Source: Nitrososphaera viennensis EN76 (GTDB lineage: Archaea; Thermoproteota; Nitrososphaeria; Nitrososphaerales; Nitrososphaeraceae). Taken from it: DNA of 32,000 bases. The notes under the pieces are model-generated. The model ran no database searches. It saw only the letters and a list, made by a program, of their open reading frames with translations, and was not told the origin of the DNA. Position 1 is the stretch's first letter, and each line of letters starts with the position of its first letter. Shown here in pieces: positions 3,217 through 30,303 of this stretch. The translations under genes were made by a program, and so were the position numbers. The stretch covers positions 1,230,001 through 1,262,000 of the forward strand of contig NZ_CP007536.1 of the NCBI RefSeq assembly GCF_000698785.1, read 5' to 3'.

Positions 3217-3412
3217 TTGTTTTTCAACTACCTATTATTCAGGATCGGCTCGAAGCAAATCAAAGAGCTGGGAAGCGAGGCGTCAAGAAATCGCAATGTC
3301 AAACAAATCCCGGGTTCTCTGTATTGTGCTATCACGGAACGACCATCAGGAGTATGGTGTACCGACTTAATAACCCAGCTCTTGCTTTTTGTCATGTCAT
3401 TTTCTCTGTATT

Positions 3413-4372: not shown

Positions 4373-4654
4373 ATGGAGATATACAACGATATCCTCAGCG
4401 CTATCAAGCTGGAATTGACAAACGGCGAGGCAAAACCTACGAGGGTGCAGTCCCTCAGCAACCTTGCATACGACAAGCTTGCAAGGTACCTGGATGAACT
4501 GGAAAGCAAGAAAATGATCGTGCAAAACCCGCTTGGGATAACCGAGAAAGGCCACGATTTTTTGCAGGATTATGACCGGATCAGGGACTTTGTCCGCGAG
4601 ATGGGCGTCAAGTACCTGGATGTTTCAGGGAGGGGAGAGATTTATGAGCGCTGA
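4373..4654 (+). CDS. small winged-helix DNA-binding protein (COG3432-like)
   Basis: MEIYNDILSAI...PTRVQSLSNLAYDKLARYLDELESKKMI...ITEKGHDFL is a wHTH pattern. ATG at 4373; the track start at 4349 is TTG. Its 3' end overlaps the next gene by 11 nt. Confidence 0.7.
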   Translation: MEIYNDILSAIKLELTNGEAKPTRVQSLSNLAYDKLARYLDELESKKMIVQNPLGITEKGHDFLQDYDRIRDFVREMGVKYLDVSGRGEIYER

Positions 4655-5267
4655 AAAAGCAGCAGCAAGTTACCGGCCAGTAAAGTTCATTGACAGAATG
4701 GAGGGAAATAACAACCACATAGTCCTGCTGTACGACAACCCCGAGTATGCAGACTTGATGATAGCCAGGTATCTCTTGAACGGCCTTGAAAAAGGCGAGT
4801 CGTGCATTTTCTTTACTCCTGACGAGCCCGAGACAATTGAAGGGCGGCTGTCTGCCCAGGGCATCGACGTCGATTCGTACAAGCGCACAGATTCTTTGCG
4901 CATCCATCGCATTGAAAGGTCCGATGAGGGAAAGCTCGATGCACTTGGCACTCTGAAACGCATAGGGAAAGAATCCACCATAGGCATGAAACCGCCTTAC
5001 AGGTTTGTCGGCAGGACGATAACGGACATTGAATCAAAGGAAGGGATGCAATTGGGGCTGGCGCTGGAAAAAACAGCCCACGAACATTTTGAGGAATTTG
5101 GTTGCTCGCAGATGTGCTACTATGACATTTCCAGAATAGAGCAGTCCAGAAGGGATGAATGGATAAAGGGGCTCTTGAAAAGCCATCACCATGTAATTTA
5201 TGCATCGGAACCTGACAAAGCCGTGGCATTTGAGACCATGCTACTTGAAGATGAAAATGAAGAATAG
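4644..5267 (+). CDS. stand-alone MEDS-domain protein
   Basis: NHIVLLYDNPEYADLMIARYLLNGLEKGESCIFF...MCYYDISRI...SHHHVIY matches the MEDS (DcmR sensory) domain pattern. ATG at 4644 is preceded by GGGAGGGGAGAG. Confidence 0.7.
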   Translation: MSAEKAAASYRPVKFIDRMEGNNNHIVLLYDNPEYADLMIARYLLNGLEKGESCIFFTPDEPETIEGRLSAQGIDVDSYKRTDSLRIHRIERSDEGKLDALGTLKRIGKESTIGMKPPYRFVGRTITDIESKEGMQLGLALEKTAHEHFEEFGCSQMCYYDISRIEQSRRDEWIKGLLKSHHHVIYASEPDKAVAFETMLLEDENEE

Positions 5268-5501: not shown

Positions 5502-5726
5502 CTAATTACTCCCCTTTTTCCTGTCGTCAAGCATCCTGTTGTACGAGTGGAATTTCTTGGCGTGGTCGCGCATCTGCTCCATGCCGTCAAAGCCCATGTC
5601 GCATTTTTCGCAGACGTACTGCTTGCTTTCGTGCGCCACCTGCTGGTGCTGCATGAATTCCTCGACCTTGCGGAACTTTTTGCCGCACTTGTCGCACTCG
5701 TGCTTTGCAGAGAAAAGGCCCGTCAT
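5502..5726 (-). CDS. two-finger classical C2H2 zinc-finger protein (74 aa)
   Basis: CDKCGKKFRKVEEFMQHQQVAH and CEKCDMGFDGMEQMRDHAKKFH both fit C-x2-C-x3-F-x5-hydrophobic-x2-H-x4-H. The ATG at 5726 overlaps the upstream stop as ATGA. The longer track ORF to 5972 overlaps the upstream gene out of frame. Confidence 0.6.
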   Translation of the reverse strand: MTGLFSAKHECDKCGKKFRKVEEFMQHQQVAHESKQYVCEKCDMGFDGMEQMRDHAKKFHSYNRMLDDRKKGSN

Positions 5727-6235
5727 TTCCTCTGGTTCCTCTCGTCCCAGCATTTCCGGCACATCTGCCCCTGGATCTTCCAGGCCGGTTTTGGGTTGTA
5801 GCGGATAAACCCTATCTTGGCCCCGCACGTGGCGCAAAAGTTCAGCCTTTTGTTGTACTCGGCCTCTTTTCTGCCAAAGCACGGCTGGCACAAAAGGGTG
5901 CCGGGCTCCATCTCCCACTGCCACCGCGGCTTGACTGCCACGTCGCCAAGCTCTGCCTTGCACATGGCGCACCGGTCAGGCTCTTGTTGCTGCTGTTGCT
6001 GCGGCCTCGACGCAAACTCTTTTGTCTTTTCGATCTGGCAGTCGCTGCACAGGTAGCCCTCTATCCTCCAATCTTCCCGGGGTTTGTATTTGTGCTTCAG
6101 CTCCCTGCCGCACACGGCGCACATGACCGGCTCCCTTTTGCCAAAGAGCAATATAGCTGGTCTTGGCGCAACGGGTACAAAAAGTATGCGTGAGCAGGCA
6201 GGGAATAAAAATTGCATGAACGGCCAATGTGACAT
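5723..6235 (-). CDS. triple zinc-ribbon repeat protein with poly-Gln linker
   Basis: Three internal repeats of CAxC(G/K)x(E/K)(L/I)...W.(I/M).G..(L/M)CxxC, with QQQQQQ between repeats 1 and 2. ATG at 6235 lies 25-40 nt downstream of an AT-rich box. Later Met starts are possible. Confidence 0.6.
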   Translation of the reverse strand: MSHWPFMQFLFPACSRILFVPVAPRPAILLFGKREPVMCAVCGRELKHKYKPREDWRIEGYLCSDCQIEKTKEFASRPQQQQQQEPDRCAMCKAELGDVAVKPRWQWEMEPGTLLCQPCFGRKEAEYNKRLNFCATCGAKIGFIRYNPKPAWKIQGQMCRKCWDERNQRK

Positions 6236-6303: not shown

Positions 6304-6648
6304 ATGAAGAAAATCGAAGCCGTGGTTCCTCATGCGCGCATCGAAAGGGCTTTTGCCGCTCTCAAGGAGCTCGACCTTGGCGGCATCACGTATTTCGAGT
6401 CAAAGGGCAGGGGAGAGATCCCGCGCCCCAAGATCCACTCTGGCAGGGGAACGGGCACCTACACCCCCGAGTTCAACGTCAACTCGACCATAATGGTAGT
6501 CGTCAAGGACTCGATGGTGGACAAGGTAATCGAAAAGATACTTGAAAGCACCAGTTCCGGCCTGAAGGGCGAGGGCAAGATATTCGTCTCCAACATTGAA
6601 GACGTGATCGACGTAGGGACGAAAAAGCGCGGAGAACCGGCTCTCTAG
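6304..6648 (+). CDS. PII (GlnB/GlnK-like) nitrogen regulatory protein, paralog 1
   Basis: 114 aa. MKKIEAVV..., a T-loop region GRGEIPRPKIHSGRGTGTYTPEF, and a C-terminal GEGKIFVSNIEDVIDVGT..GEPAL typical of PII. Confidence 0.85.
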   Translation: MKKIEAVVPHARIERAFAALKELDLGGITYFESKGRGEIPRPKIHSGRGTGTYTPEFNVNSTIMVVVKDSMVDKVIEKILESTSSGLKGEGKIFVSNIEDVIDVGTKKRGEPAL

Positions 6649-6668
6649 CAGCAAAGAAGAAAAAAGAG

Positions 6669-6824
6669 CTAGTTGGAAGCTAGAAGTTCTTCAATAGCCT
6701 GGCTTGCGTTCAGCATGCCCTTTTTCTTGGCATATTCTTCGACCACCTTCAACTGGTCAGGGGTGAAGCAGATCGGCATCGTCCTCTTGCCATCTTCGAT
6801 TGCAGTAGTAGTGGTTGCTTGCAT
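6669..6824 (-). CDS. 51-aa ribbon-helix-helix (CopG/Arc-like) protein, not in the supplied ORF track
   Basis: My own translation of the minus strand gives MQATTTTAIEDGKRTMPICFTPDQLKVVEEYAKKKGMLNASQAIEELLASN. This is a beta-strand followed by two helices, as in RHH proteins. ATG at 6824, stop TAG at 6669-6671, 45 nt downstream of PII gene 2. Confidence 0.5.
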   Translation of the reverse strand: MQATTTTAIEDGKRTMPICFTPDQLKVVEEYAKKKGMLNASQAIEELLASN

Positions 6825-6869: not shown

Positions 6870-7214
6870 TTAGAGCGCGTCGTCGCCGGCCTCTTTGCTT
6901 CCAATGTCGTACGCTTCTGCCACATCGTAGACGAATATCTTGCCGTCAGACGCCGAGCCGGTGCTTATCGTCTTCATTATGTCGTCGATTATCGGCTTTG
7001 CCAGCTTGTCGGCAACCAGCACCTCGATTTTTGTGCGGAACCCGAACTCGGGCACGTAGCGCATGACCCCCCTGCCGACTGCGACCGGCTCTCTTTTTGC
7101 GCGGCCCCTGCCCTTGATGTCGTAAAACGACATGCCTCCCACCTTGTGCTTGTGGAGGATCTCGTTGACCTCTTCGAGACGCTCGTGTGGAATTATCAGG
7201 TCCAGCCTCTTCAT
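6870..7214 (-). CDS. PII (GlnB/GlnK-like) nitrogen regulatory protein, paralog 2
   Basis: 114 aa. MKRLDLII..., a T-loop region GRGRAKREPVAVGRGVMRYVPEF, and a C-terminal DGKIFVYDVAEAYDIGS..GDDAL. Confidence 0.85.
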   Translation of the reverse strand: MKRLDLIIPHERLEEVNEILHKHKVGGMSFYDIKGRGRAKREPVAVGRGVMRYVPEFGFRTKIEVLVADKLAKPIIDDIMKTISTGSASDGKIFVYDVAEAYDIGSKEAGDDAL

Positions 7215-19208: not shown

Positions 19209-20783
19209 TCACCTCTTTGTTTCCGTCATTGCCTGCGGGCTCAGGTCCTCGGCCGCAAGGTTCCTGTCTATGCGCAGGACCGACTTGGCTATCTCGCCGG
19301 CGGCCTTTAACGCCATGGTCTTGACCATGAGCGGATCTATGACCCCGATGTTCCACATGTCCACCGGCTCGCCAGAGTTGATGTCGATGCCGTAGCCGGG
19401 TGGAGAGGTCTTGGCGGTCATGACCCTTTCAAGCCCGTTAAATCCTGCGTTGGTCAGTATCTGCCGCATTATGCTTTCCAGCGCGGCGGCTACCACTTCG
19501 AGGCCCACCTGCTCAAGCCCCTTGAGCCTCGCGTTCTTGACCTTGTCCATTATGTGCAGCTCCGCAGCGCCTCCTCCCGGGACCACGCCCGTGTTAAGGG
19601 CCGCCTCGGCCGCGTTTACGCCGTCAATTGCCGCCCGCCATCTCTCAAGCGACGTCTCTTTGGTCGTTCCCGAGACCACTATGGTCACCATGTTTTTGCC
19701 GGCGCCGCCTTCGATGTATACGATGCCGTTGTCCTCGTCTTCGTAGATCCGCTCGGCCCTGCCCAGGATGTCGTGCTTTTTCAGGTCGTCGGCCACCCTT
19801 GCGGGCTTGGCGCCGGTGTACCTTGTCAGGTGGTCGATCTCCTCCGTGGCTACCCTTGCTGCAAAGACGCCCCTTGCCACAAGCATGTCCTCGACGGCCT
19901 GGTCCACCTCCGGCGACGCGATCAGGATCGCGTTGGCGCCGGTCTTGAGCATTGCGTCGACCATTTCCCGGGACTTGGCCATCCTGTCGTTTTCCATGAG
20001 CAGGATCTCTTGGTAGTTCTTGTTCTCCTTGATCCACGACTCCTTGACGGGCTTTAGGTCCATCTTTGTGATCAGAATCCTTGCGCCCCTCACTTCCTGC
20101 GGGACCTCCGGGTCGAGCCTCTTTCGTTCAAGCACTATTCCGTTGACCACCTGGTCGTCCATGCTGGTCTTGCGAAGCACCATGATGGCCTTGCCAAAGT
20201 CGTACTCGCCGTTGTACTTGGCGTTTTCGCCCACTGTCCGGAGGGCGGTGATGACCATCTTGGCGAGCCGGGCGCCGTCCAGTTTCGAGGAGAGCGAGGT
20301 CGTCACCACGTGCTCCAGCTCGCGATCGTTGATGGATATGGACTTGGCATCCTCCTCAAGAAGCTGGCAGGCATGCCTGACGCCGCTTTCGATGCCCTCG
20401 ACCACCTTGGTCGGGTGGACCCCAAGCTCCTTTATGAGCCGCTTGCCTTCCTTTATCATCTCTGCAGACATTACCACTGCCGTGGTCGTCCCGTCCCCGA
20501 CCAGCTGCTCCTGCCTCTCTGCTATCTCCACTATCATTCTTGCAACGGGGTGGATGGCCTTGAGCGAGAGCAGGATGGTGACGCCGTCGTTTGAAACGTG
20601 CCTGTTCATGGCCTGGTCTATAAGCAGCTTGTCCAGGCCCTTTGGGCCCAGAGTCGTCCTCACGCAGTCGGCCACCGCCATGACCGCGCTTGAATTTGAT
20701 TCCAGAGCGTTGTACTCCACGTGCTCTGCTATTGGACGCCAGACTCCATAATTAGGTGCGGACATATTGGCAGCCGTTTGCAT
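19209..20783 (-). CDS. divergent group II chaperonin (thermosome/CCT-like) paralog
   Basis: TTLGPKGLDKLL, NDGVTIL, GDGTTT, VVPGGGAAE and IDPLMVK motifs. 524 aa. An alternative ATG at 20765 fits the TATA-like box better. Confidence 0.85.
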   Translation of the reverse strand: MQTAANMSAPNYGVWRPIAEHVEYNALESNSSAVMAVADCVRTTLGPKGLDKLLIDQAMNRHVSNDGVTILLSLKAIHPVARMIVEIAERQEQLVGDGTTTAVVMSAEMIKEGKRLIKELGVHPTKVVEGIESGVRHACQLLEEDAKSISINDRELEHVVTTSLSSKLDGARLAKMVITALRTVGENAKYNGEYDFGKAIMVLRKTSMDDQVVNGIVLERKRLDPEVPQEVRGARILITKMDLKPVKESWIKENKNYQEILLMENDRMAKSREMVDAMLKTGANAILIASPEVDQAVEDMLVARGVFAARVATEEIDHLTRYTGAKPARVADDLKKHDILGRAERIYEDEDNGIVYIEGGAGKNMVTIVVSGTTKETSLERWRAAIDGVNAAEAALNTGVVPGGGAAELHIMDKVKNARLKGLEQVGLEVVAAALESIMRQILTNAGFNGLERVMTAKTSPPGYGIDINSGEPVDMWNIGVIDPLMVKTMALKAAGEIAKSVLRIDRNLAAEDLSPQAMTETKR

Positions 20784-20894: not shown

Positions 20895-22622
20895 CTAGGC
20901 CATGAAGTACCTCTGCGCCAGCGACAGCTCCTCCGCAGGCCCCACGGTTGCGATCTTGCCGTCCAGCTTGACCTCGTACGTCTCTGGGTCGATGGTTATC
21001 TTGGGTGTCGCGTCGTTCCACATCATGTTCTTCTTGCTGATGTTCCTGCAGTTTTTGACAGGCAGGCAGATTTTTTCCAGGCCCAGCTTTTGCGGGACGC
21101 CCAGCTCCATCGCCCTCTTGGACGTGAAGGTGTAGCTCGTCTTGTGGACTGCCTTGCCCATGGCGCCAAACATCGGTCTGTAGTAGACCGGCTCAGGGGT
21201 CGGGAGCGACGCGTTGGGGTCGCCCATTATCGACCATGCAATAAAGCCTCCTTTCAGAACCATCTTGGGCTTGGCGGGGAAGAACGACATTGGATACATC
21301 ACAATGTCCGCGTACTTGCCCACTTCAAGCGATCCAAGGTACTCCGAGACGCCGTGCGTTATGGCGGGGTTTATCGTGGTCTTGGCGATGTACCTCTTTG
21401 CCCGGAAATTGTCGTTGTCGCTTGCATCCTGCTCTAGCTTGCCCTTCATCTTCTTCATCTTGTCTGCAGTCTGCCACGCGCGGATGACCACCTCGCCTAT
21501 CCTCCCCATCGCCTGGCTGTCTGACGAGTACATGGAAAGCACACCCTCGTCGTGCAGGACGTCCTCTGCTGCGATGGTTTCCGCCCTGATCCTGGACTCG
21601 GCAAACGCCACGTCTTCAGCGACTGCAGGGTTCAGGTGGTGACAGAACATCAGCATGTCCAGGTGCTCGTCCACGGTGTTCTTGGTGTAGGGTCTTGTCG
21701 GGTTGGTCGACGACGGCAGCGCAAACATCTCTCCGGCGATCTTCATGATGTCCGGCGCGTGTCCCCCGCCGGCCCCTTCCGTGTGGTACGTGTGGACCAC
21801 CCTGCCGTCTATAGCGTTGATGGTATCCTCGACGTACGCGCACTCGTTTATAGAGTCGGTGTGGATTGCGACCTGCGTGTCCGTAAGGTCCGCCGCCCTG
21901 AGCGAGGCGTCCAGAACGGCCGCGGTGGTGCCCCAGTCCTCGTGATCCTTCAGGCCGCAGACGCCCGCGTCAATCTGCTCAAGCTGGGTCGCCAGCGTCG
22001 GATGCGAGTCGTTTCCTTTGCCCAAAAAGCCCCAGTTCATTGGAGTGTCCTCGACTGCTTCCATCATCCTGCTTATGTTGTACACGCCGGGCGTGCACGT
22101 TGTCGCGTTTGTGCCGTCCGCAGGCCCGGTTCCTCCGCCTATCATGTTGCAGATGCCGTTGCTGATGCCGTCTATGTACTGCTGCGGGGCGATCATGTGT
22201 ATGTGCGTGTCAAAGTGGCCGGGCGTGCATATCGTATGCTCGCCGGCGGTCGCTTCCGTGCAGGCCGACACCACCATGTTCGGGTTAACCCCGTCCATTG
22301 TGAGCGGGTTGCCGGCCTTTCCAACCCCTGCTATCTTGCCGTCCTTGATGCCAATATCAGCCTTGACTATCCCAAGCACGGGATCCAGGATGACCGCGTT
22401 TGTTATGACAAAGTCCAAGGCGCCATTCTTGTTCGTGACACCGGGCGTCTGGGCAAGGCCGTCTCTGAGCGTCTTGCCTCCGCCAAAGACACACTCGTCT
22501 CCAGGCGTGATAAGATCTTTTTCTATCTGTATCATGAGGTCCGTGTCTCCAAGCCTCACCTTGTCGCCGGTGGTCGGCCCGAACAGGTCGGTGTATTGTT
22601 TGCGGGTTAATTTCAGGACCAT
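20895..22622 (-). CDS. ureC: urease alpha subunit
   Basis: 575 aa. N-terminal [29 protein letters not shown] (HxH Ni ligands), the MFCHHLNP region and TINPAITHG. Confidence 0.97.
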
Positions 22623-22636
22623 TTTCTTCTCCGCTC

Positions 22637-23005
22637 CTAAGCTCCGTTAAAGCCCTGCTTCTGGGCTTTTTCGACGGCTGCGCGCATGACCATGCTCGAG
22701 TTCAGGCTGCCCATGGTCAGGCCGTTGAACCCGAAGCAGACCCTGGCGCCTCCTATTTCACACAGCTCCACCTCTTTGCTGTCCCCCGGCTCGAACCTTA
22801 TCGAAGTGCCGGCCGGTATGTTGAGCCTGTAGCCGAACGCCTTTTCCCGCGGAAAGTCAAGTGCCCTGTTTACTTCAAAGAAATGCGTATGCGAACCTAT
22901 CTGGCAAGGCCTGTCCCCCTTGTTCTTCACGGTGATCTTTACCGTCTTTCTGTTTGTGTTGCACATCACCGGTTCAGAGGCCAGAACGTATTCACCGGGC
23001 ATCAT
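22637..23005 (-). CDS. ureB: urease beta subunit
   Basis: MMPGEY...[17 protein letters not shown]...[18 protein letters not shown]. The ATG at 23005 is preceded by AAGGAGGT. An in-frame GTG at 23083 would add a 26-aa Lys-rich extension. Confidence 0.88.
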
Positions 23006-23089
23006 TGGCCTAGCGACCTCCTTTTTTTTGATGATTTTCTTTTGGCTTCTTCTTTTTTTTGTTTTACCATTTGTTTTCTTCACCCACTC

Positions 23090-23392
23090 CTATTGTACTG
23101 GATCATGCACGGTGACCAGCTTTGTGCCGTCTGGAAAAGTCGCTTCCACTTGGACCGTGTGAATCATGTCCGGCACTCCGGACATAACGTCGTTTTTCTT
23201 CAGGATGGTTCTGGCAGACTGCATCAGCTGTGCGACGGTTTTTCCTTCTCTTGCGCCCTCCACGACATAGTTGGCTATATAAGCCACCGTCTCTGGGTAA
23301 TTCAGTTTTATACCTCGCTTTTTCCTCCCTTCAGCGATCTGGGCAGCCGTCCAGATCCACATCTTTTCCATCTCTCTTGGTGCAAGCATCAT
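23090..23392 (-). CDS. ureA: urease gamma subunit
   Basis: 100 aa. [12 protein letters not shown]...[10 protein letters not shown]...[19 protein letters not shown]. Confidence 0.92.
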
Positions 23393-23517
23393 TTTGTTTG
23401 CATGACCTCAGAGTCCGATAGAGTAGTGAACTATTTTAGATTTAGAAACTAACTAGCTCAATAAATACAGCCATGAGCACGCCGGAAAAACGCGCCGGGC
23501 GGACGAGCCGCAATTTA

Positions 23518-23539
23518 GCCGACGTCGACTGAATTTTTT
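23518..23539. repeat. left copy of a 22-nt inverted repeat (GCCGACGTCGACTGAATTTTTT)
   Basis: Its reverse complement matches 25456-25477 at 21 of 22 positions. The site is itself part of an imperfect 24-nt palindrome centred on GAC|GTC. Confidence 0.75.
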
Positions 23540-23552
23540 TAGAGTATCGTCT

Positions 23553-24158
23553 TTACTTTTCTGCTATCCTTATTGGAAGGGCAACTCCAAGCCAGAAAAA
23601 GACAGACTCGTACAGCCCGTTCTTGTTCACTGGCAGCGTGAAATCGTAGGTCTTGCCGTCCGTCGTCTTGATGGTCAGAAAGTTTGAGACTATGGCCCGC
23701 CCCATCATGTTTGTCACCATAGTTTCCCACCCCTTGCGGAGGGTAAACTCGCGCATGTCCGAGTACCAGATGGAGTAGCCAAAGTTCTCGCTCCGGAGAA
23801 GGTCTTCAGGAGTAAAGTTTGCCTGCTTTCGGATCTTTGAAGTGTCGTCTTTGCCACCATCATTATTATTATTCATGGTCAGCAGGTACGGGTACGGCGC
23901 AAGCCCGGCCACGTACCCAAGGTCGGCGAATTTTGCCAGGAAGCTTTTCTTGGACACGATAACCCGCTCGGTGGTAAAGTCGAGCGTAAAGTTCTTTGAC
24001 CAGCCGCCCTTGCTCTCGGAACTCAGCCGCAAGACGACTTCTTCCAGATGGTTCTCCTTGCACCAAGCCATGTAGGTTCTCACCCTTTCCGAGTCTGACA
24101 TGCCCGGCAGTTTTCCCTTGTACCGTTTTGTGAACCTGTCAAATGTTTGCGGGTTCAT
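23553..24158 (-). CDS. hypothetical protein (201 aa) between the UT gene and ureA
   Basis: Clean ATG ORF with no hydrophobic segments and a poly-Asn/Asp-rich central loop. No family recognised. Confidence 0.6.
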   Translation of the reverse strand: MNPQTFDRFTKRYKGKLPGMSDSERVRTYMAWCKENHLEEVVLRLSSESKGGWSKNFTLDFTTERVIVSKKSFLAKFADLGYVAGLAPYPYLLTMNNNNDGGKDDTSKIRKQANFTPEDLLRSENFGYSIWYSDMREFTLRKGWETMVTNMMGRAIVSNFLTIKTTDGKTYDFTLPVNKNGLYESVFFWLGVALPIRIAEK

Positions 24159-24168
24159 TTTTCATTTC

Positions 24169-24209
24169 CACACACACAGAGAGATAGGGATATACACGCG
24201 CGCGTATGT
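24169..24209. repeat. (CA)5(GA)3 followed by a 20-nt perfect alternating purine-pyrimidine tract
   Basis: cacacacacagagaga at 24169-24184, then atatacacgcgcgcgtatgt at 24190-24209, containing the palindrome ACGCGCGCGT. The tract lies in the UT/201-aa intergenic spacer. Confidence 0.7.
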
Positions 24210-24240
24210 CGGCGAAAAAATTTCTGAGCCGGGATTCCTC

Positions 24241-25449
24241 TCATGGCCTTGACCACCCTATCCCGGCGGGAATGTTCAGGAACCCCGAAGTCGCAAGGAG
24301 GAATACCCACGCAGTAAAGACGAACGGGCCCGTAAGCGCCGGCAGGCCCCACTGGCCGAAGAACCTTTGAAGGCCCGGCATCAGGAAGGAGCAGCCTACC
24401 GTTGCAAACACGGCCATCATAAAAGACTGCGGCGTCAGGGGAACAAAGCTTGTCAGCGCTATCATCACCAGCACCTGATTGAATCCGTGCAACCCCATCC
24501 TTGTCTCTGCGGTGGGCAGCTTTGTCAGTATGGCCATTGCCGCGCCAATGCCCGAGCCAAGGAGGGCCATCAGCCCGGCCAGGTACAGCGGCGAAAACTC
24601 GTCCCACTGCGACGTGTAACCGTTGGTCCACCACGGCCTGTCCTGCACACCGCTGATGAACGGGGCAAGCTCGAACGCAAGCGTCAGACCGACGACCCAG
24701 AACACGCCCGTCTTCCAGTTTTCGACAAAGGTGACCTGCGATACGCCCTTCAGGGTCGCTATCATGAACTCCTTTGCTGTCCACTTGAAGCTGTTGCTTG
24801 TGTTAGGGTTGCCGCTTTCTTTTATCAGCTCCTCTTTGGGCGGCGGGGCCGGAGCCGGCCATATGTCGTGGCCAAACCTCTTGGACGCATACATCATGGC
24901 CCACGTGGTAAAGATGAACGACGACGTAAAGCCCGGTATCGCCCAGGAATTGGCGATGCCGTTCAGTACGAACATGTCTCCCATCAGGTGCGCAAATGCC
25001 ATCCACGTAAATGCGGTGATGGCAGCGCCAAAGACGGAGATAAAGAAGGTGGCCTTGTTGGCCTTGACAAACGGCCCAGACCAGAACGCCATGCCCGTGA
25101 GTATAGAGTTGTAGCCGAACAGGCCGAATGTCACAAGGTCGTACGACGCGCCGGCCATTATCGCTATTCCTGCTCCGATAAGGCCTGACAGCACCATCAT
25201 TCCGCCTGCCTTGCGCGATGCCAGAAACACACCTGCCAGAATCAGTATGCCGGTTATCGGAGAGCTGAAAAGCGGCACTTCCGCGATCCCGTTGAAGAGT
25301 ATGAAGAAGAAATCCATCGCGGGATTTCCAGTAGAGTATGTTGGGATAGCCATTGATTTCCAGTGCGAGGAGTGCGGTTTAACAATTTGTAAGCAAGATG
25401 AATTTATTAATGCAGAATAACCCAAAGCGATCGCAAGAGTCGCAATCAT
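24241..25449 (-). CDS. UT-family urea channel (two-repeat architecture)
   Basis: GLFGYNSILTG and GLHGFNQVL, plus PGFTSSFIFTTW and LTGPFVFTAW, are the paired UT repeat signatures. LKGVSQVTFVEN is also present. Alternative ATGs lie at 25353 and 25317. Confidence 0.85.
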   Translation of the reverse strand: MIATLAIALGYSALINSSCLQIVKPHSSHWKSMAIPTYSTGNPAMDFFFILFNGIAEVPLFSSPITGILILAGVFLASRKAGGMMVLSGLIGAGIAIMAGASYDLVTFGLFGYNSILTGMAFWSGPFVKANKATFFISVFGAAITAFTWMAFAHLMGDMFVLNGIANSWAIPGFTSSFIFTTWAMMYASKRFGHDIWPAPAPPPKEELIKESGNPNTSNSFKWTAKEFMIATLKGVSQVTFVENWKTGVFWVVGLTLAFELAPFISGVQDRPWWTNGYTSQWDEFSPLYLAGLMALLGSGIGAAMAILTKLPTAETRMGLHGFNQVLVMIALTSFVPLTPQSFMMAVFATVGCSFLMPGLQRFFGQWGLPALTGPFVFTAWVFLLATSGFLNIPAGIGWSRP

Positions 25450-25455
25450 CTAGAT

Positions 25456-25477
25456 AAAAAATTTAGTCGACGTCGGC
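25456..25477. repeat. right copy of the 22-nt inverted repeat (AAAAAATTTAGTCGACGTCGGC)
   Basis: Matches the reverse complement of 23518-23539 at 21 of 22 positions. It begins 7 nt beyond the UT ATG at 25449. Confidence 0.75.
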
Positions 25478-25574
25478 AAAAGTTTCTAGACAGGCAAGTA
25501 AGCAGGCACGAGATCGGCAGGCCCCTCCAATCACGGCGAATATGCTGCCTTACCGGTTATACTACTACAGCGGC

Positions 25575-25608
25575 ATCACCATCATCATTATCGTCATCGT
25601 CATCATCA
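25575..25608 (-). repeat. TGA/GAT trinucleotide tract starting at the DUR3-USP stop codon
   Basis: The minus strand in frame reads TGA TGA TGA CGA TGA CGA TAA TGA TGA TGG TGA. It shares the octamer TGACGATG with tracts at 1589-1613, 15728-15763 and 31321-31353. Confidence 0.7.
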
Positions 25609-27927
25609 CTTCATCAGCACCACAGGCGTTGACGAAGTCTTTAGCACCTTTCGGGTCACGCTCCCCATCTCTGCTGCTCTGTTGTTGATTCCGTTAATCC
25701 CCATCACGATCATGCTTGCCCCGATTTTTTCTGCAACTTCAACGATCTTGGAGGCAGGGTCTCCCATCTTTACAATCCTCACATATTCTCCTGCCCTGCG
25801 CGGGACTATTACGCTGTTGAGCAGGATCCTCCCCTCCTTTTCCATCCTGGAGGTCAGTTCCTCATCGACTGACTCGTCGCTTTCTTCTTCCGGCCATTCG
25901 ATAACGTAGAGCAGGTATATCTTTGCCTCGTTTATGCCGTAGATGTTTGTTGCATAGTTGAGCGCGCGCAGCGACTGCCCCGACCCATCTATCGGTACGA
26001 GGATCCTTTTGGCATAGTACAGCTCGTCAGAAGTGGCAGCCGGCTTTGGAGGTCCTTCCATGTCCTGCGTGGCAATTGCGTTTGTCTTTTGGCCCATGAT
26101 GTGCAGGACCTTGGTGATCCCGACTCGGGCCTCGATCAAAGGCAGGAATATGATAACTGCTGCTGCAGATCCTGCCCACGCCACTGCAATTCCAACCCAT
26201 ATAGTGTAGGTTGTTTCGGTAAAGACATAGCCGGAAAGGTAAAGCGGCATCGGCCAGGCCACGACCAGAACGAGCGTGAGGGCAATGGCGGCTTTGTAGC
26301 CAACCTTGAGAGATTTCTTCAGGTATTCCTCGTTTTCGCTTTCAAACAACCCCTTGATCTTTCCGTCGACAACCAGTATCTTTTGCTTCATGAGGCTCAG
26401 GTCAAAGTTGCTTGGCCTGATGGTACTCCCTATCAGGGCGACGGCCGCCCCGACAAATATGGACGAAAGGTTGCCTGCAAGCAGAGGTATGTCATGTCCG
26501 GTAGAGTGGACCGATATTTCGCCATAGAGCACGTACGCGGTTCCCACCCACACGCTCACGCCGCAGACAAGGCCGGCCAAGGCGCCGGCCGTGGCAGCAA
26601 CCCTGTTTGTCTTTTTCCACAGGACAAGCGTGACTGGGACCACAGCGGAACCTATCAGGACTCCCATCGCAAGGTAGACGTACTGGAGGCTGACTCCGAT
26701 CTGGAGAAGCACCAGCGCCAGCACCCCCATGCCGATGCCAAAGGCCACTATCGAATAGCGCGAAATGCGCATCAGCTCCCTGCCGCTTGCCGACGGCTTT
26801 AGGTAGGTCCTGTAAACGTCGTACGTGACGAGCGACGAGACCGCGACAAGCTCTGCAGAGCCGGCCGCAGTGACGGCCGTGAACAGTATGGTGAGCATGA
26901 GTATGGCTCCAAGTTCTCCAAGGACGTGCGAGGCAGCCGTGGGAGCCACCAGCCCCATACTGATCTCTTCTGGAGTGAGCTGCACGTTGACCGCGACTGC
27001 GGCAAGCCCAAGCGTCGTGGCAAGGGTAAACGGTATGGCAAACCATGCGAGGCCGCCTGCAAGGAAGCCCTTGAATGCAGAGCGCGGCCCTGCAGCTATT
27101 GCGCGCTGCCAGTATGCCTGATCCACAAAAACGGTCCCGAAGTTTCCTGCTATGTTTATCACGCCAAATATCAGTGCGCCAGTAGACGCCAGCGTCAGGT
27201 ACGAACCTGTCGCGTTGCCTTCAACCGGGCGAAGCGCCGCGGCGGTGCTCAGCTTTTCAAACATGCCAGAAATCCCGCCTATCTTGGGATCGATAAAGTA
27301 CACTGCCGTGACAAAGACCAGCACGACGATAAAGAGGAAAACCGTGTTCATGTACTCTGCAAGAAAGGTCGCCTTGAGCCCTCCAGAGAACGTGTAGATT
27401 ATCACGCCTATAGGGATGAGAAAGGCGGCAAGCGAGATGTTTATCCCGGTCAGCGAGCTTAGAGCTGCGGCCCCTCCTAGGACAAGCATCGCGGTGACAA
27501 CTGTGTTGGTCATTAGCGCAAAGAAGAGGAACACCTTGTGGGAGCCCTTGCCAAACCGAGCGTAGATTATCTCCGGAAAGGTGTGGGACGAGGGGGCCTT
27601 GCGCTTGAGCTCTGTGGCAAGAATTGCAAACAGGACCACCTGTATGCTGGCCCCTGCCGCGTACCAGAACGGCCCGCTGACTCCAAACTGGTAGGCAACT
27701 GTGGAGGACTGGAGGAGAGTTGCCGCCCATGTCCATGCCGACACCACCGACGACGCTATCAGCCCGACCTTTACGGACCTTCCAGCAGTTGAGAACCATT
27801 CAAAGGTCTTCTTGGTGCCAAGCCATTTGGTCTCCACCCTTACCAGCAGGATAACTGCAAGCGCCATGACCAGTCCCACTCCAAGGAGGATAAAGTATCC
27901 CAGACCTTCGGAGAGGACTACTTCCAT
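25606..27927 (-). CDS. dur3: DUR3-type SSS urea transporter fused to a C-terminal universal stress protein domain
   Basis: STAGRSVKVGLIASSVVSAWTWAATLLQSSTVAYQFGVSGPFWYAAGASIQ is the DUR3 signature region as I recall it. The last ~140 aa (ILVPIDGSGQS...MIVMGINGINNRAAEMGSVTRKVLKTSSTPVVLMK) form a USP domain. Confidence 0.9.
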   Translation of the reverse strand: MEVVLSEGLGYFILLGVGLVMALAVILLVRVETKWLGTKKTFEWFSTAGRSVKVGLIASSVVSAWTWAATLLQSSTVAYQFGVSGPFWYAAGASIQVVLFAILATELKRKAPSSHTFPEIIYARFGKGSHKVFLFFALMTNTVVTAMLVLGGAAALSSLTGINISLAAFLIPIGVIIYTFSGGLKATFLAEYMNTVFLFIVVLVFVTAVYFIDPKIGGISGMFEKLSTAAALRPVEGNATGSYLTLASTGALIFGVINIAGNFGTVFVDQAYWQRAIAAGPRSAFKGFLAGGLAWFAIPFTLATTLGLAAVAVNVQLTPEEISMGLVAPTAASHVLGELGAILMLTILFTAVTAAGSAELVAVSSLVTYDVYRTYLKPSASGRELMRISRYSIVAFGIGMGVLALVLLQIGVSLQYVYLAMGVLIGSAVVPVTLVLWKKTNRVAATAGALAGLVCGVSVWVGTAYVLYGEISVHSTGHDIPLLAGNLSSIFVGAAVALIGSTIRPSNFDLSLMKQKILVVDGKIKGLFESENEEYLKKSLKVGYKAAIALTLVLVVAWPMPLYLSGYVFTETTYTIWVGIAVAWAGSAAAVIIFLPLIEARVGITKVLHIMGQKTNAIATQDMEGPPKPAATSDELYYAKRILVPIDGSGQSLRALNYATNIYGINEAKIYLLYVIEWPEEESDESVDEELTSRMEKEGRILLNSVIVPRRAGEYVRIVKMGDPASKIVEVAEKIGASMIVMGINGINNRAAEMGSVTRKVLKTSSTPVVLMK

Positions 27928-27945
27928 GCCCGTAAGAATGTCAAC

Positions 27946-27958
27946 AAAAATTTAAAGG
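27946..27958 (-). promoter_or_regulatory. TATA-like box of the DUR3-USP gene
   Basis: The minus strand reads cctttaaattttt, centred about 25 nt upstream of the ATG at 27927. This is consistent with a leaderless or short-leader mRNA. Confidence 0.4.
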
Positions 27959-28015
27959 TGTATAAGGTTAGGGCGCCTGCCTAACATACGTTGTAATAAA
28001 CGTATAACTGACAAG

Positions 28016-28030
28016 ATAATTTTCAAAATT
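28016..28030 (+). promoter_or_regulatory. 15-nt AT-rich near-palindrome ATAATTTTCAAAATT upstream of the Lrp-like gene
   Basis: The identical 15-mer, in the same orientation relative to the gene, lies upstream of the ParB-like gene at 29550-29564. This copy is 42-56 nt upstream of the ATG at 28072, just upstream of the TATA-like ctatata at 28043-28049. Confidence 0.5.
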
Positions 28031-28071
28031 ACTTGAAAACACCTATATACAAACCCTGATAACCCCACTTG

Positions 28072-28611
28072 ATGCCCGACGACATTGACGAGCTGCTCCT
28101 CTCGGCGCTGAGCAGGAATGCAAAGCAAGACCCTCTGGAGATCTGGGACTTTTTAAAAGGGCATGGCCACGACGTCCCGATAGAGGAGATCGAGTCGAGA
28201 ATAACCAAGCTCGAAAATGACGGCGTCATAACCGGCTACACTATATCAGTGGACACTAGAAAGCTGAGGCGCAGGGTCATCAGGGTCGTGCTGGCAACAT
28301 TCAAGACCTCGCAGCACCTTCCAAAAAGGCTGGAAGGGTTGAAAAAGTACGTAGCCGACGCGCCCTTTGTGCTGTTCTCGGGCCGCACAAGGGGAGGGTA
28401 TGACTGGATATGCGTCCAGGCGTTTCCATCCGAGGAGATGGCCGACGAGGAGAGCGATATCTACAGGAACCTTTTTGGCGACATCATACAATCCTACCAG
28501 GTGTACGACTTTATGCCCGTGAAGGACCCTTCCTTCCACTCGCTTGCATACACCAGCAAGGAATACAAAAGATTCCTTGACGAATGGATACCGCCATTTC
28601 TACCCAGATAG
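28072..28611 (+). CDS. Lrp/AsnC-family transcription regulator-like protein with a C-terminal extension
   Basis: DELLLSALSRNAKQDPLEIWDFL...IESRITKLENDGVITGYTISVDTRKL is an Lrp-type wHTH, followed by a RAM-like domain. The ATG at 28072 lies 26 nt downstream of ctatata. Confidence 0.75.
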   Translation: MPDDIDELLLSALSRNAKQDPLEIWDFLKGHGHDVPIEEIESRITKLENDGVITGYTISVDTRKLRRRVIRVVLATFKTSQHLPKRLEGLKKYVADAPFVLFSGRTRGGYDWICVQAFPSEEMADEESDIYRNLFGDIIQSYQVYDFMPVKDPSFHSLAYTSKEYKRFLDEWIPPFLPR

Positions 28612-28636: not shown

Positions 28637-29500
28637 CTAGCTTCTGTGCTGTTTTGCGCTGCTGTTCTTGAAGCGTATGCTGTCATCTATCAGCGAATGA
28701 ACTTTCAGCCGGACCCCCATCAAAAAGTTGATAATTTCGGCTCGCTGGTCCGGCTCGACGGTGCTGTGGACTTCGTTTATGAGGTTGTCTATCCTGTTCA
28801 GCGCGATCTTTAGGGTCAGGTACGTCTTGCGTGCTATGACTGGCGCCCTCGACTTTGCCGCGACGACAAGATCATCGTGACTTTCCTGATTCAGAGCGTT
28901 CTTCAGTTCACGGATCTGCCTTACCGTCAGGTCGTTGTTCATGATGTGCTCCACTATCATGGACTGCTTTTCATGCGAGATCTGGGCTATCTCGATCGCC
29001 TGGCTGACATTGATGGATCTGTTCGCTATCTTTTCCTTGATCTCGTCAGGGAGCCTCAGCAGCTGCATGTGGTGCGAGACGTATTCCTCGCTTTTGCCTA
29101 TCTTTTTTGCAAGCTCTGTCACACCTCCCCACCCAAAATCCACTATGTATCTCCGGAACGCTTCTGCCTCTTCCAGAGGATCCATCGATTTTCTCTGGAC
29201 ATTTTCAGTGAGCTGGATTTCGTATGATTGCTTGTCTGTTAGCTCTCTTATTTTTGCTGGAATGAATCGCCATCGCAGGTTCTTGCAGGCATGGAACCTC
29301 CTGTGGCCCGCCACTATTTCAAAGCCGACAGTGAGCGGCCTGATGAGTATCGGCTGCAGCAGGCCGTGCTCGCGGATACTGTTAACCAGCGTCTCGAAAT
29401 CTGGATCGTCTTTCTGAAATGTGTCACGGATTGCAAACTGGGACGGCCGGATCATCTTCATCTCAATTTGCTCGACAACACTCGAATCGATAAATTCCAT
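28637..29500 (-). CDS. ParB/Spo0J-like protein (ParB N-terminal domain + HTH), no ParA nearby
   Basis: LVNSIREHGLLQPILIRP, EIVAGHRRFHACKNL (GxRR box) and the HTH region VTELAKKIGKSEEYVSHHMQLLRLPDEIKEKI. Confidence 0.8.
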   Translation of the reverse strand: MEFIDSSVVEQIEMKMIRPSQFAIRDTFQKDDPDFETLVNSIREHGLLQPILIRPLTVGFEIVAGHRRFHACKNLRWRFIPAKIRELTDKQSYEIQLTENVQRKSMDPLEEAEAFRRYIVDFGWGGVTELAKKIGKSEEYVSHHMQLLRLPDEIKEKIANRSINVSQAIEIAQISHEKQSMIVEHIMNNDLTVRQIRELKNALNQESHDDLVVAAKSRAPVIARKTYLTLKIALNRIDNLINEVHSTVEPDQRAEIINFLMGVRLKVHSLIDDSIRFKNSSAKQHRS

Positions 29501-29664: not shown

Positions 29665-30303
29665 CTATTTTCCATAACGTTTTTTTGCATAAAAGAGCTC
29701 TTCTGGCAGGAATAGATCTGCAATGTCCTCGGGCAGCAATGCGTACTCGATGGTTGCTTTTCCGGTCGCCAGGTCCTTTAGAAAGTCATCATCATTGTCA
29801 TTGCCACCTACCATCTTTGCCAGCCGCCGGACAGGATTGACATAGAGCTCTTCCACCCAGTATGGAGGCCAGGCCATCGCATACCGGTGCTTTTCGGTTA
29901 ACTTGTACGTAAAGTACCATGCCAAGCCCTCCCTGAGCTGGTGAGGGAGGCTTTTGCTGATGATGCTGTGAATTAATTCGTGTAGATAATGGCCGAATTT
30001 TGCCGCATCGAACCTGATCACGATTTCTCGCAGCCGGTAGTCGGTTATCCCAACGAGTTTTGCTCCAGCCGGCAGGGACAGGTTGGACCCTTCTTTTCTT
30101 GCCACAACCTGTACCTCCATTTCCCAGGTTCCCCTGCAGATCAGTATGTCAAAAGAAGAAGCAACGCCAAAGTAGTCGTAAATGACTTTGTTGGCATGCT
30201 CTATCAAAAGGAAAACATTTTGCATTTCTTGCAACGAAGTTTCAGTTAGAAAAGTTACGACGGACCCGGACATTGGAAGGCTATGTACGGCAAAGTATCC
30301 CAT
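29665..30303 (-). CDS. putative gluzincin-type metallopeptidase (peptidase MA-like, HExxH)
   Basis: GHYLHELIHSIISKSLPHQLREGLAWYF has HExxH plus a downstream EGLAxY third-ligand region. No signal peptide. Confidence 0.55.
   Translation of the reverse strand: MGYFAVHSLPMSGSVVTFLTETSLQEMQNVFLLIEHANKVIYDYFGVASSFDILICRGTWEMEVQVVARKEGSNLSLPAGAKLVGITDYRLREIVIRFDAAKFGHYLHELIHSIISKSLPHQLREGLAWYFTYKLTEKHRYAMAWPPYWVEELYVNPVRRLAKMVGGNDNDDDFLKDLATGKATIEYALLPEDIADLFLPEELFYAKKRYGK

Follow-up and report, generated by a model that had tools for sequence, protein, structure and literature searches.

The window analysed here, a stretch of 32,000 nucleotides from Nitrososphaera viennensis EN76, contains two nearly identical repeats in inverted orientation that tightly bracket a urea transporter gene and the gene that follows it, next to the urease genes ureABC. 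What these repeats do is the question raised by the locus. The sequence-only reading gave two answers: they could be operators through which one dimeric regulator controls the transporter operon and ureABC, or they could be the terminal inverted repeats of a two-gene cassette, inserted or invertible at this position. Having compared the locus with its relatives, we consider it very probable that the repeats are two instances of one conserved 18-bp cis-regulatory DNA element, a shared predicted operator.

Two copies of one palindrome

The left repeat, GCCGACGTCGACTGAATTTTTT, lies at 23518-23539 on the plus strand and the right repeat, GCCGACGTCGACTAAATTTTTT, at 25456-25477 on the minus strand. 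They are reverse complements at 21 of 22 positions, as first described, and an inverted-repeat search lengthens the arms to 26 nt, of which 24 are complementary (92%). When up to three mismatches are allowed, the whole window yields two matches only, which are the two 22-mers themselves, and none of 100 dinucleotide shuffles yields any match. It also holds, for each copy, that the repeat is itself an imperfect palindrome centred between GAC and GTC. What is conserved is an 18-mer, shifted 3 nt relative to the 22-mers and located at 23515-23532 and 25463-25480, with the consensus TTW-GYCGAC·GTCGRC-WAA (18 bp; the dot marks the dyad axis). The A/T tracts that prolong the left repeat (23533-23539, inside the 22-mer) and the right repeat (25456-25462) are lineage-specific, fall outside the conserved site and are common to the closest relatives only; the left tract, for instance, is present in the window and in N. 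evergladensis and is missing from L002, L004, L006 and beyond. Because the core is palindromic, the 'inverted' orientation of the two copies is generally meaningless, being defined only by a minor asymmetry (GCC..GAC versus GTC..GGC) together with the A/T tail, and in the Nitrososphaera clade only.

The ureA-proximal dyad (23515-23532) reads TTAGCCGACGTCGACTGA on the plus strand and TCAGTCGACGTCGGCTAA in gene orientation. This dyad is centred 131 nt 5' of the ureA ATG and lies 20 nt beyond the stop of the 201-aa gene; the left 22-mer indeed ends 13 nt outside that stop codon (23553-23555). The transcription unit downstream of this site is ureABC (20895-23392, minus strand), comprising ureA (23090-23392), ureB (22637-23083) and ureC (20895-22622), with Pfam matches to Urease_gamma, Urease_beta and Urease_alpha, respectively.

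The UT-proximal dyad (25463-25480) reads TTAGTCGACGTCGGCAAA on the plus strand and TTTGCCGACGTCGACTAA in gene orientation, and lies 125 nt beyond the stop of a gene for an SSS (DUR3-like) transporter fused to a Usp domain (25606-27927, minus strand), whose own promoter region has no dyad. Downstream of the right site, the transcription unit begins with the gene of the UT-family urea transporter (Pfam UT, 3.6e-52). The right repeat was originally placed 7 nt outside the UT ATG. It does lie 6-7 nt outside the first ATG (25449) of a 402-aa ORF, but this start is almost certainly over-extended, because every relative has UT called at 370-377 aa with a start equivalent to M33 of that ORF, and because alignment of the relatives over 25354-25449 reveals conserved A/T promoter-like boxes and indels. 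The UT start in the window has probably been annotated about 96 nt too far upstream, such that the gene would occupy 24241-25353 on the minus strand and the centre of the site would be ∼118 nt 5' of the probable start at 25353. Directly 3' of UT, in every case, is the gene for the conserved 201-aa protein (23553-24158, minus strand). A Pfam search with this protein gave no family, and its AlphaFold model (pLDDT 48) was too poor for a structure search.

Conservation across Nitrososphaeraceae

We assembled a set of about 85 Nitrososphaeraceae loci, representing 80 further species, N. gargensis and four loci selected by unk201. Related loci were gathered by a ParB-anchored scan of a genome collection, with extra loci added through unk201 or the motif, and the core was counted as present at no more than one mismatch. 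The dyad core occurs 86-144 nt 5' of the ureA ATG in 48 of 52 related loci and 82-278 nt 5' of UT in 43 of 61; the other 18 loci have UT with no upstream site, and most of these retain the ureA site alone. Five genomes with diverged flanks keep both sites, exactly two per 12-kb locus, and in footprint alignments the dyad stands out as an island of identity within otherwise unalignable spacers. Orthologous loci therefore keep both the genes and the repeats, the outcome that favours operators, and the dyad is retained at both promoters while the flanks have diverged.

The sequence-only reading had also raised the concern that the 22-mer might be a common dispersed repeat unrelated to urea genes, and the 1.13 Mb of related DNA scanned did not bear this out. 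That DNA contains 98 core sites, where 0.29 would be expected; 87 lie within 420 nt 5' of ureA or UT and most of the others in the same intergenic regions. The sites are never within genes in the related loci, and the 1.13 Mb holds no non-coding extra copies. A scan of a viral collection returned 14 single matches and no repeat family.

The sites also follow particular genes through rearrangement. In one clade the UT-ure block is inverted relative to parB and the site moves with ureA, and in N. gargensis the site stays with UT despite an IS605 fragment between SSS and UT. In L093, L057 and L060 a site is found 80-118 nt 5' of a second SSF-family transporter gene, while in ∼20 loci it sits in a divergent NicO-like/UT intergenic region. 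L057 and L060 have, in addition, one copy between two convergent 3' ends.

These comparisons bear directly on the cassette. The two copies do bracket exactly two genes in the window and are inverted at 24 of 26 positions, rearrangement breakpoints in other lineages do fall in these intergenic regions, one clade has an inverted UT-ure block, and L093 has the second-SSF block in the orientation opposite to that in L057 and L060. However, when relatives were compared for presence, absence or inversion of the bracketed block, no such polymorphism was seen: wherever the UT and 201-aa pair occurs, its place, order and orientation with respect to ureA are unchanged, and many genomes hold the ureA-side copy only. 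Conservation is confined to the palindromic core, and a palindrome looks inverted by construction. The earlier observation that there is no recombinase and no target-site duplication was upheld, with no recombinase between or beside the repeats, no flanking direct repeats and no extra copies. A two-gene cassette, mobile or invertible, with these copies as its terminal inverted repeats is thus an extremely improbable explanation.

We found no earlier description of the motif in the literature, and the literature matches for CGACGTCG, the 8-bp centre of the dyad, in archaea are cloning primers. A metagenome-wide scan was also carried out with TTWGYCGACGTCGRCWAA. Among the matches listed, 4 of 120 are archaeal ure loci, and most represent an unrelated bacterial palindrome in coding sequence, specifying the peptide DHFADVGKMV; the ORFs with this peptide presumably resemble DinD. 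One TTAG-type match in non-coding DNA (L120) was rejected, as it lies on an unrelated contig with an integrase.

The element is conserved as DNA

In a matrix of 103 unique sites, little or no variation is seen at the positions G, C, G, A, C / G, T, C, G, C. At the variable pair the half-sites vary independently, with U.G (18) and C.A (17) equally common, and the flank positions fit the expectation for independence. This independent variation points to DNA half-sites, rather than an RNA stem, as the target of selection.

It is nevertheless easy to see why an RNA element might be considered, whether a 3'-end hairpin of the upstream gene (for termination or stability) or one in a 5' leader. Each site lies 20-125 nt beyond an upstream stop codon and allows a 4-7-bp stem closed by an ACGU loop to be drawn. 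On the gene strand of the window, the right copy is also succeeded by a T6 run, possibly an oligo-T signal that terminates transcription of the SSS-Usp gene. Yet the sense-strand folds are weak (-3.7 and -6.0 kcal/mol; z = +0.15 and -0.11 against shuffles), there is no excess pairing at the flanks, and what is conserved is sequence rather than pairing. The T run is not conserved, and the UT-side site of N. gargensis is 2 kb from the SSS 3' end. No Rfam family matches the element, and we regard an action as RNA as very improbable. The element shows dyad symmetry at the DNA level, a phylogenetic footprint and, in the loci compared, restriction to promoters of functionally related, co-regulated genes, which are the marks of an operator.

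A shared predicted operator for urea-utilisation genes

Under the operator reading, a dimeric sequence-specific DNA-binding protein would occupy the dyad and co-regulate the urea-utilisation genes of Nitrososphaeraceae. In the window, one site would serve the operon of UT and the 201-aa gene and the other ureABC; in other genomes the same site would act on the second SSF-family transporter gene that it precedes, or within the divergent NicO-like/UT promoter region. Two further points are in favour of one regulator acting at both promoters. The first is that both sites of a genome share the same clade-specific variant, as with a clade-specific ACAT centre. The second is that, in published transcriptomics, the ut and ureC transcripts of N. 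viennensis change ∼10-fold together after addition of urea or ammonia. Ammonia is the preferred substrate of soil ammonia-oxidising archaea.

The papers searched on urea use by ammonia-oxidising archaea identify no regulator or operator. The dyad, conserved family-wide and tied to urea-transporter, nickel-transporter and urease promoters, offers a handle on how urea use is switched, and an 18-bp site makes the regulation of the ∼10-fold urea-gene switching in soil ammonia-oxidising archaea directly testable.

How such a site might act is suggested by the sequences between it and the genes. On the ureA side, alignment reveals a conserved A/T box A at 23457-23467 (minus strand; TATTTATTGAG), a candidate core-promoter or second-factor element, and a box B at 23426-23448 (minus strand; TTTCTAAATCTAAAATAGTTCAC), a candidate BRE/TATA, after which comes a leader that hardly varies and contains GAGGTCATGC at 23400-23409. 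The UT side has a corresponding A/T box A at 25400-25410 (minus strand; TTAATAAATTC), within the over-extended 402-aa ORF, and a box B at 25377-25390 (minus strand; ACAAATTGTTAAAC). We presume these A/T boxes to be promoters. The site would then lie 30-120 nt 5' of boxes that resemble core promoters, and this distance, together with the variable length of the spacer, suggests that the bound protein acts at a flexible distance rather than by simple occlusion of TATA/BRE. The sites are near the 3' end of the upstream gene every time, and a role in blocking read-through is possible.

Some observations run against an operator. Among known archaeal activators, a variable distance from site to putative promoter is unusual; sites of the Ptr2 type, for example, abut BRE/TATA. 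The copy between convergent 3' ends in L057 and L060 cannot be a promoter element, and UT has no upstream site in the 18 of 61 loci mentioned above.

In bacteria, urease operons are under nitrogen or urea control by NtcA, NAC, UreR or AmtR, and methanogens have NrpR. A single operator common to urea-uptake and urease promoters would follow the same logic: urea or a shortage of nitrogen would induce the genes together and ammonium would repress them, in keeping with the published ut and ureC expression. The dyad motif, however, is unrelated to the known sites of those systems, and none of the NtcA, NAC, UreR, AmtR and NrpR families was detected among the window ORFs tested.

Candidate binding proteins

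Two named candidates for the binding protein are encoded beside the sites, an orphan ParB/KorB-type protein (28637-29500, minus strand) and an Lrp/AsnC-fold regulator, p180 (28072-28611, plus strand), the latter divergent from the SSS-Usp gene. The ParB-type protein, encoded 3 kb away, is the strongest local candidate, with a likelihood that we put somewhat short of even; p180 is a rather unlikely binder, and what probability these two leave goes to a regulator encoded elsewhere. The 201-aa protein is unlikely to bind the dyad, L057 and L060 keeping sites without its gene. A MetJ-like reading of the site, based on the met-box sequence AGACGTCT, was also dropped, since Pfam shows no RHH protein among the window ORFs tested and the idea is left with no candidate. 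Some site variants are asymmetric or differ between the two sites of one genome, so that there is no clean specificity switch to set against HTH residues, and phylogeny would confound any correlation between HTH residues and site variants.

The ParB-type protein has Pfam matches to ParB_N (4.5e-22) and HTH_ParB (4.1e-20), with weaker matches to KorB (3.3e-5) and DUF7119, and PDB matches to Spo0J (6sdk, 4e-32; 7ng0, 2e-30) and KorB (8qa8, 1e-7). Its box II reads GHRRFHA, and 12 orthologues show no variation at G, H, R, R, F and A. Compared with the canonical ParB box II, GERRxRA, the two central arginines are kept, as is the box III ENxQR, whereas the E and the third R of box II are replaced. 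Neither the tested ORFs of the window nor any of the annotated loci gave a ParA/CbiA-type Pfam call, which makes the protein an orphan ParB, like Noc or the KorB-type regulators.

Linkage of the parB gene to the ure locus is seen in every related locus examined, and one or two dyads occur within 3-8 kb of the gene in all ure-bearing loci (including eight that were chosen by unk201 and one by the motif), a proximity that amounts to co-localisation only. L053 has parB and no site within 10 kb on either side. A search for another conserved non-coding palindrome near parB found none: TTCAGTTAACTGAA was rejected as a ParB site because it is coding sequence inside parB itself, and TGTTCATCAATGAACA because it is confined to a single clade, where it lies 7.6 kb away.

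Binding by the ParB-type protein would make the dyads parS/OB-like loading sites, from which it would reach the promoters in the manner of KorB on plasmid RK2. There are several parallels with KorB and its OB sites. In both cases a protein with ParB_N and HTH domains is encoded beside the targets, there is no ParA partner, and short palindromes lie at variable distance 5' of promoters (45 bp to >1 kb upstream in the case of OB). The outer arms of the dyad, TTAGC...GCTAA, also resemble OB, TTTAGCGGCTAAA. There are differences too. KorB-OB is a plasmid-borne, bacterial, long-range repressor system built on a ParB-family CTPase clamp, whereas the system here is chromosomal and archaeal. The dyad is 18 bp with an 8-bp centre, against 13 bp for OB, and half-site spacing differs. 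Unlike in the KorB system, no KorA-like partner was identified here, and the protein is closer to Spo0J/Noc (4e-32) than to KorB, the likeness being one of sequence. Taken in full, the proposal that the dyads are parS/OB-like loading sites from which this protein controls urea-uptake, nickel-uptake and urease promoters at variable distance is tentative, and on balance somewhat unlikely.

Spo0J and Noc are the best sequence relatives of the ParB-type protein. The dyads might also be parS-like sites that help to organise or segregate the chromosome and lie at urea promoters only incidentally. ParB-parS and Noc-NBS targets are 14-16-bp palindromes clustered near the parB gene, and the size and symmetry of the dyad are typical of ParB-family sites; a copy or two close to the parB-like gene in every locus, with no rival palindrome nearby, would fit as well. 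The difference is that here no ParA is called in the annotated loci and the sites are strictly intergenic and tied to the promoters of one metabolic pathway; whether inversion, IS insertion or gene replacement has occurred, they go with ureA, UT, the second SSF and the NicO-like gene. L053, with parB and no site nearby, is a further point against segregation, and a survey of the ParB fold (preprint) considers archaeal HTH-ParBs unlikely to act in it. We therefore judge a segregation role improbable. Archaeal HTH-ParBs have no assigned function. Were the ParB-type protein to be the binder, ParB/KorB-style regulation would extend to archaeal chromosomes and archaeal HTH-ParBs would gain a function, with an archaeal ParB-family protein of altered box II (GHRRFHA) acting as a regulator of metabolic transcription.

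The case for p180 is that its RAM domain would detect a metabolite reporting nitrogen status and that, with the dyads as its operators, the protein would control all the urea genes of the locus. It has the Lrp/AsnC fold (an HTH followed by beta-alpha-beta-beta-alpha-beta), its structural matches include the glutamine-binding ST1022, and it is strongly conserved, with synteny kept in 71 of the 88 loci tested. Proteins of the Lrp/AsnC family commonly use dyad sites 5' of promoters to control nitrogen and amino-acid genes, and they form higher oligomers able to act over extended DNA, which could tolerate variable spacing. As in other archaeal Lrp/AsnC (FFRP) systems, a protein of the right fold is encoded in the locus. 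In contrast to those systems, p180 tracks the SSS/DUR3 gene and not the dyad. In the clade of L076, L083, L084, L096, L099 and L101 and in the motif-selected L138 the locus has no p180-like ORF or SSS and the ureA site persists; p180 could be encoded elsewhere in these genomes. In L226, p180 is without its HTH half and both sites are intact. The known sites of archaeal Lrp proteins are A/T-centred, and the GC-rich, contiguous and conserved centre of the dyad is unlike them. The presumed recognition helix of p180 is acidic (PIEEIESRI). Its own divergent promoter region has no GC dyad; in the Nitrososphaera clade, this region contains instead an AT-rich inverted repeat that is more Lrp-type in look.

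Paired repeats flanking the urea transporter gene

The urea genes of the locus share the minus strand: ureC (20895-22622), ureB (22637-23083), ureA (23090-23392), a gene for a 201-aa protein of unassigned function (23553-24158), the ORF of a UT-family urea transporter (24241-25449; 402 aa from the first ATG) and a gene for an SSS (DUR3-like) transporter with a fused Usp domain (25606-27927). A ParB-type gene (28637-29500) is also on this strand, and the gene for p180 (28072-28611, plus strand; 179/180 aa) is transcribed divergently from SSS-Usp. The 22-mers GCCGACGTCGACTGAATTTTTT (23518-23539, plus) and GCCGACGTCGACTAAATTTTTT (25456-25477, minus) lie where the sequence-only reading placed them, with the 21 of 22 identities that it gave; a repeat search lengthens each arm to 26 nt, with 92% complementarity. 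No other match was found in the 32-kb window with up to three mismatches allowed, and at the same threshold none of 100 dinucleotide-preserving shuffles of the window gave one. The unit that is conserved is an 18-mer displaced by 3 nt from these repeats (23515-23532 and 25463-25480), the A/T run inside the 22-mer being common to the closest relatives only. Among related loci, GYCGACRTCGRC matches number 98 in 1.13 Mb, against 0.29 expected from composition, and this excess together with the shuffles excludes a chance origin.

The right-hand copy had been described as lying 7 nt outside the annotated UT ATG. This is correct for the ORF start at 25449, but the centre of the site is ∼118 nt upstream of the probable start at 25353. 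Relatives begin at the equivalent of M33, with called lengths of 370-377 aa, and the 96 nt 5′ of the M33 codon contain conserved promoter-like A/T boxes and indels; UT therefore very probably starts at 25353, and the annotation from 25449 is probably wrong.

Conservation of the sites in Nitrososphaeraceae

In the loci fetched with homologues of the 201-aa protein (nearest named relative, N. evergladensis, 82% identity), the gene order matches that of the window: ParB, p180, SSS-Usp, UT, 201-aa gene, ureABC, thermosome, ureEF. The 12-kb loci contain exactly two sites apiece, and both intergenic regions hold GYCGACGTCGRC with TAA-like flanks in otherwise unalignable surroundings. For a family-wide set, scanning a genome collection with the ParB-type protein as anchor gave 80 loci from named Nitrososphaeraceae genomes (ParB identity 60-93%), which were annotated by tblastn with the window proteins. 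Upstream of ureA, 48 of the 52 loci have the core with no more than one mismatch, and 50 have it if two are tolerated; the distance from its centre to the ATG is 86-144 nt, the other two loci having it ∼390 nt upstream. For UT, 43 of the 61 loci have the site, at a distance of 82-278 nt upstream. Of the 98 GYCGACRTCGRC matches, 87 are no more than 420 nt upstream of ureA or UT; the other 11 mostly fall in these intergenic regions as well, and three are coding (two in ureC, one near the SSS 3′ end in locus L057).

The association persists through rearrangement. In loci where inversion has reversed the whole UT-ure block with respect to parB, ureA still has its adjoining site, and in N. gargensis, where an IS605 fragment parts UT from SSS, a site still adjoins UT. 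Three loci (L093, L057 and L060) lack UT and the 201-aa gene in the sequenced locus; in these, a second SSF-family transporter gene has a site 80-118 nt upstream. In ∼20 loci UT is divergent from a NicO-like nickel-transporter gene, and the UT site occupies the region between the two. Thus, the element travels with urea-uptake, nickel-uptake and urease promoters.

Two readings of the repeats had been offered: operators of one dimeric regulator shared by the UT operon and ureABC, or terminal inverted repeats of an inserted or invertible two-gene cassette. The cassette is refuted. UT and the 201-aa gene are syntenic and co-oriented with ureA wherever present, many genomes have only one dyad copy, and, as already reported, there is neither a recombinase nor a target-site duplication. 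Nor is the motif a common dispersed repeat: the 1.13 Mb of related DNA contained no dispersed copies, and a viral collection gave single matches only. The shared operator, to which a protein would bind, is supported by the footprint at both promoters, and the element is best regarded as an operator that is previously undescribed as far as the literature searched shows.

Some loci are arranged differently. The inverted block comprises UT, the 201-aa gene, ureABC and the thermosome gene. Its orientation is reversed with respect to parB, and to p180 and SSS in the loci that have them, in one clade (L080, L083, L088, L094, L096, L097, L099, L100 and L101), which retains the ureA-side dyad and is missing the UT-side one. 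In L057 and L060 one dyad copy (L057:13878, L060:13872) lies between the convergent 3′ ends of SSS-Usp and a Usp gene and the other 80 nt upstream of the second SSF gene, so that the pair brackets three genes (Usp, Zn-ribbon protein, SSF), a block that has the opposite orientation in L093; both loci also have a conserved ∼40-aa ORF with CxxC motifs between dyad and ureA. The N. gargensis fragment, from IS605 OrfB, is at L102:5981-6304, and locus L226 has DDE transposase fragments at 937-1392, 3108-3365 and 6308-6778, with a third dyad copy at 6726.

Promoter context

Alignments of close relatives revealed three conserved islands upstream of ureA and UT alike: the dyad, an A/T box A (TATTTATTGAG at 23457-23467 for ureA; TTAATAAATTC at 25400-25410 for UT) and a box B (TTTCTAAATCTAAAATAGTTCAC at 23426-23448; ACAAATTGTTAAAC at 25377-25390). 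The boxes are putative core-promoter elements. Between dyad and box A the spacer varies in sequence and length (∼30-60 nt for ureA, ∼45-120 nt for UT), which suggests that a bound protein would not occlude TATA/BRE and would act across a flexible distance to the promoter. In N. viennensis, Qin et al. reported ∼10-fold shifts, up or down, in the transcripts of both ut (NVIE_014780) and ureC (NVIE_014740) during the 24 h after urea or ammonia was added; two units under one operator would be expected to respond in this way. No dyad was found at the SSS-Usp promoter, or near the genes for two P-II proteins (6304-6648, plus; 6870-7214, minus), a C2H2 zinc-finger protein (5502-5972, minus) and a MEDS-domain protein (4572-5267, plus) that the window also encodes.

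The ∼50 nt directly 5′ of the ureA start (23400-23448; TTTCTAAATCTAAAATAGTTCAC...GAGGTCATGCAAA) are almost invariant among Nitrososphaera species, more so than a TATA box alone would need. In every locus examined, ureC is separated from the accessory genes ureE/F/G/D by a thermosome (Cpn60/TCP-1) gene (19209-20783 in the window), which has the look of a chaperonin dedicated to the urease cluster.

DNA site or RNA structure

Since every site falls shortly past the stop codon of an upstream gene, an RNA hairpin was tested. Across 103 unique sites the half-sites vary independently: at the Y/R position of the sense strand U.G (18) and C.A (17) are equally common, and flank positions pair as often as they would if the halves were independent. 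Predicted folds of the sense strand are weak and do not surpass those of shuffled sequences (z = -0.11 and +0.15), and an Rfam search of the sites matched no family. What selection acts on is thus the DNA sequence of the individual half-sites, which is what one expects if the binder is a dimeric protein. In one whole clade, to which N. gargensis belongs, both sites of each genome have ACAT (or its complement, ATGT) at the centre, so the two sites of a genome co-vary.

Candidate binding proteins

The ParB-type protein is strongly conserved among relatives and has ParB_N and HTH_ParB domains with a weak KorB match; it scores 4e-32 against Spo0J, a chromosomal ParB, and 1e-7 against KorB, the repressor of plasmid RK2. 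Canonical ParB box II is GERRxRA; here it is GHRRFHA, with G, H, R, R, F and A invariant in 12 orthologues, and box III ENxQR is retained. The protein may prefer a different nucleotide from CTP-binding ParBs. Its gene is 3-8 kb from the ure genes in eight loci picked through the 201-aa gene and in one picked through the motif (L138), and the linkage is therefore no artefact of selection.

A purely centromeric role for the sites is unlikely, given their strict link to promoters and the absence of any site within 10 kb, on either side, of parB in L053. No ParA was called in any annotated locus; a ParB-fold survey describes archaeal HTH-ParBs as scattered, seldom accompanied by ParA, and considers a role in segregation improbable. 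The palindrome that KorB recognizes, TTTAGCGGCTAAA, is found 45 bp to >1 kb away from promoters, which KorB represses from afar as a CTP-dependent clamp. In the dyad, the outer arms (TTAGC...GCTAA) resemble this palindrome, but the half-site spacing differs, and the likeness is a lead only.

The other conserved DNA-binding protein of the locus, p180, has an Lrp/AsnC fold (∼40 top Foldseek matches are Lrp/AsnC proteins at ∼1e-7; phmmer matches to LrpC and LrpA at 1e-3 to 4e-3). One clade has neither p180 nor SSS-Usp at the locus but retains the parB-like gene and the ureA dyad; in L226 p180 has lost its HTH half (residues 94-179 remain) with both dyads intact; and the p180 promoter region has a differing, AT-rich inverted repeat. 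Taken together, the evidence on the two proteins favours the ParB-type protein over p180. Genomes without a local p180 may encode one elsewhere, or an unlinked factor may bind. Overall, recognition of the dyad by an archaeal ParB/KorB-type regulator is a possibility, though less likely than not. The 201-aa protein is unlikely as binder, as L057 and L060 retain sites without its gene.

The AT-rich repeat, TTTTCAAG-TAAT-TTTGAAAA, lies in the divergent p180/SSS-Usp region beside a TATA-like GTATATAG. It and a second conserved block there, CTTATACACCTTTAAATTTTTGTTGAC (the region's stretches 28020-28039 and 27940-27966), are both kept in the Nitrososphaera clade, and the repeat may be an operator of the Lrp-like p180. 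Upstream of parB, and syntenic with it in many loci, is a conserved 212-aa gene (29665-30303) without a Pfam family, whose HExxH motif (HELIH) suggests a metallopeptidase-like protein.

An unrelated, near-perfect 30-bp palindrome, GAYCATTTTGCCGACGTCGGCAAAATGRTC, recurs among the listed metagenome matches (L103-L222) in bacterial contigs of 26-69% GC (for example L177:1149-1166 and L139:9454-9471). It lies within ORFs, where it encodes DHFADVGKMV, in proteins that resemble DNA-damage-inducible protein D. It is odd that a palindrome should be kept at the nucleotide level inside coding sequence of such different GC; L153 and L177 each have two copies, ∼700 nt apart.
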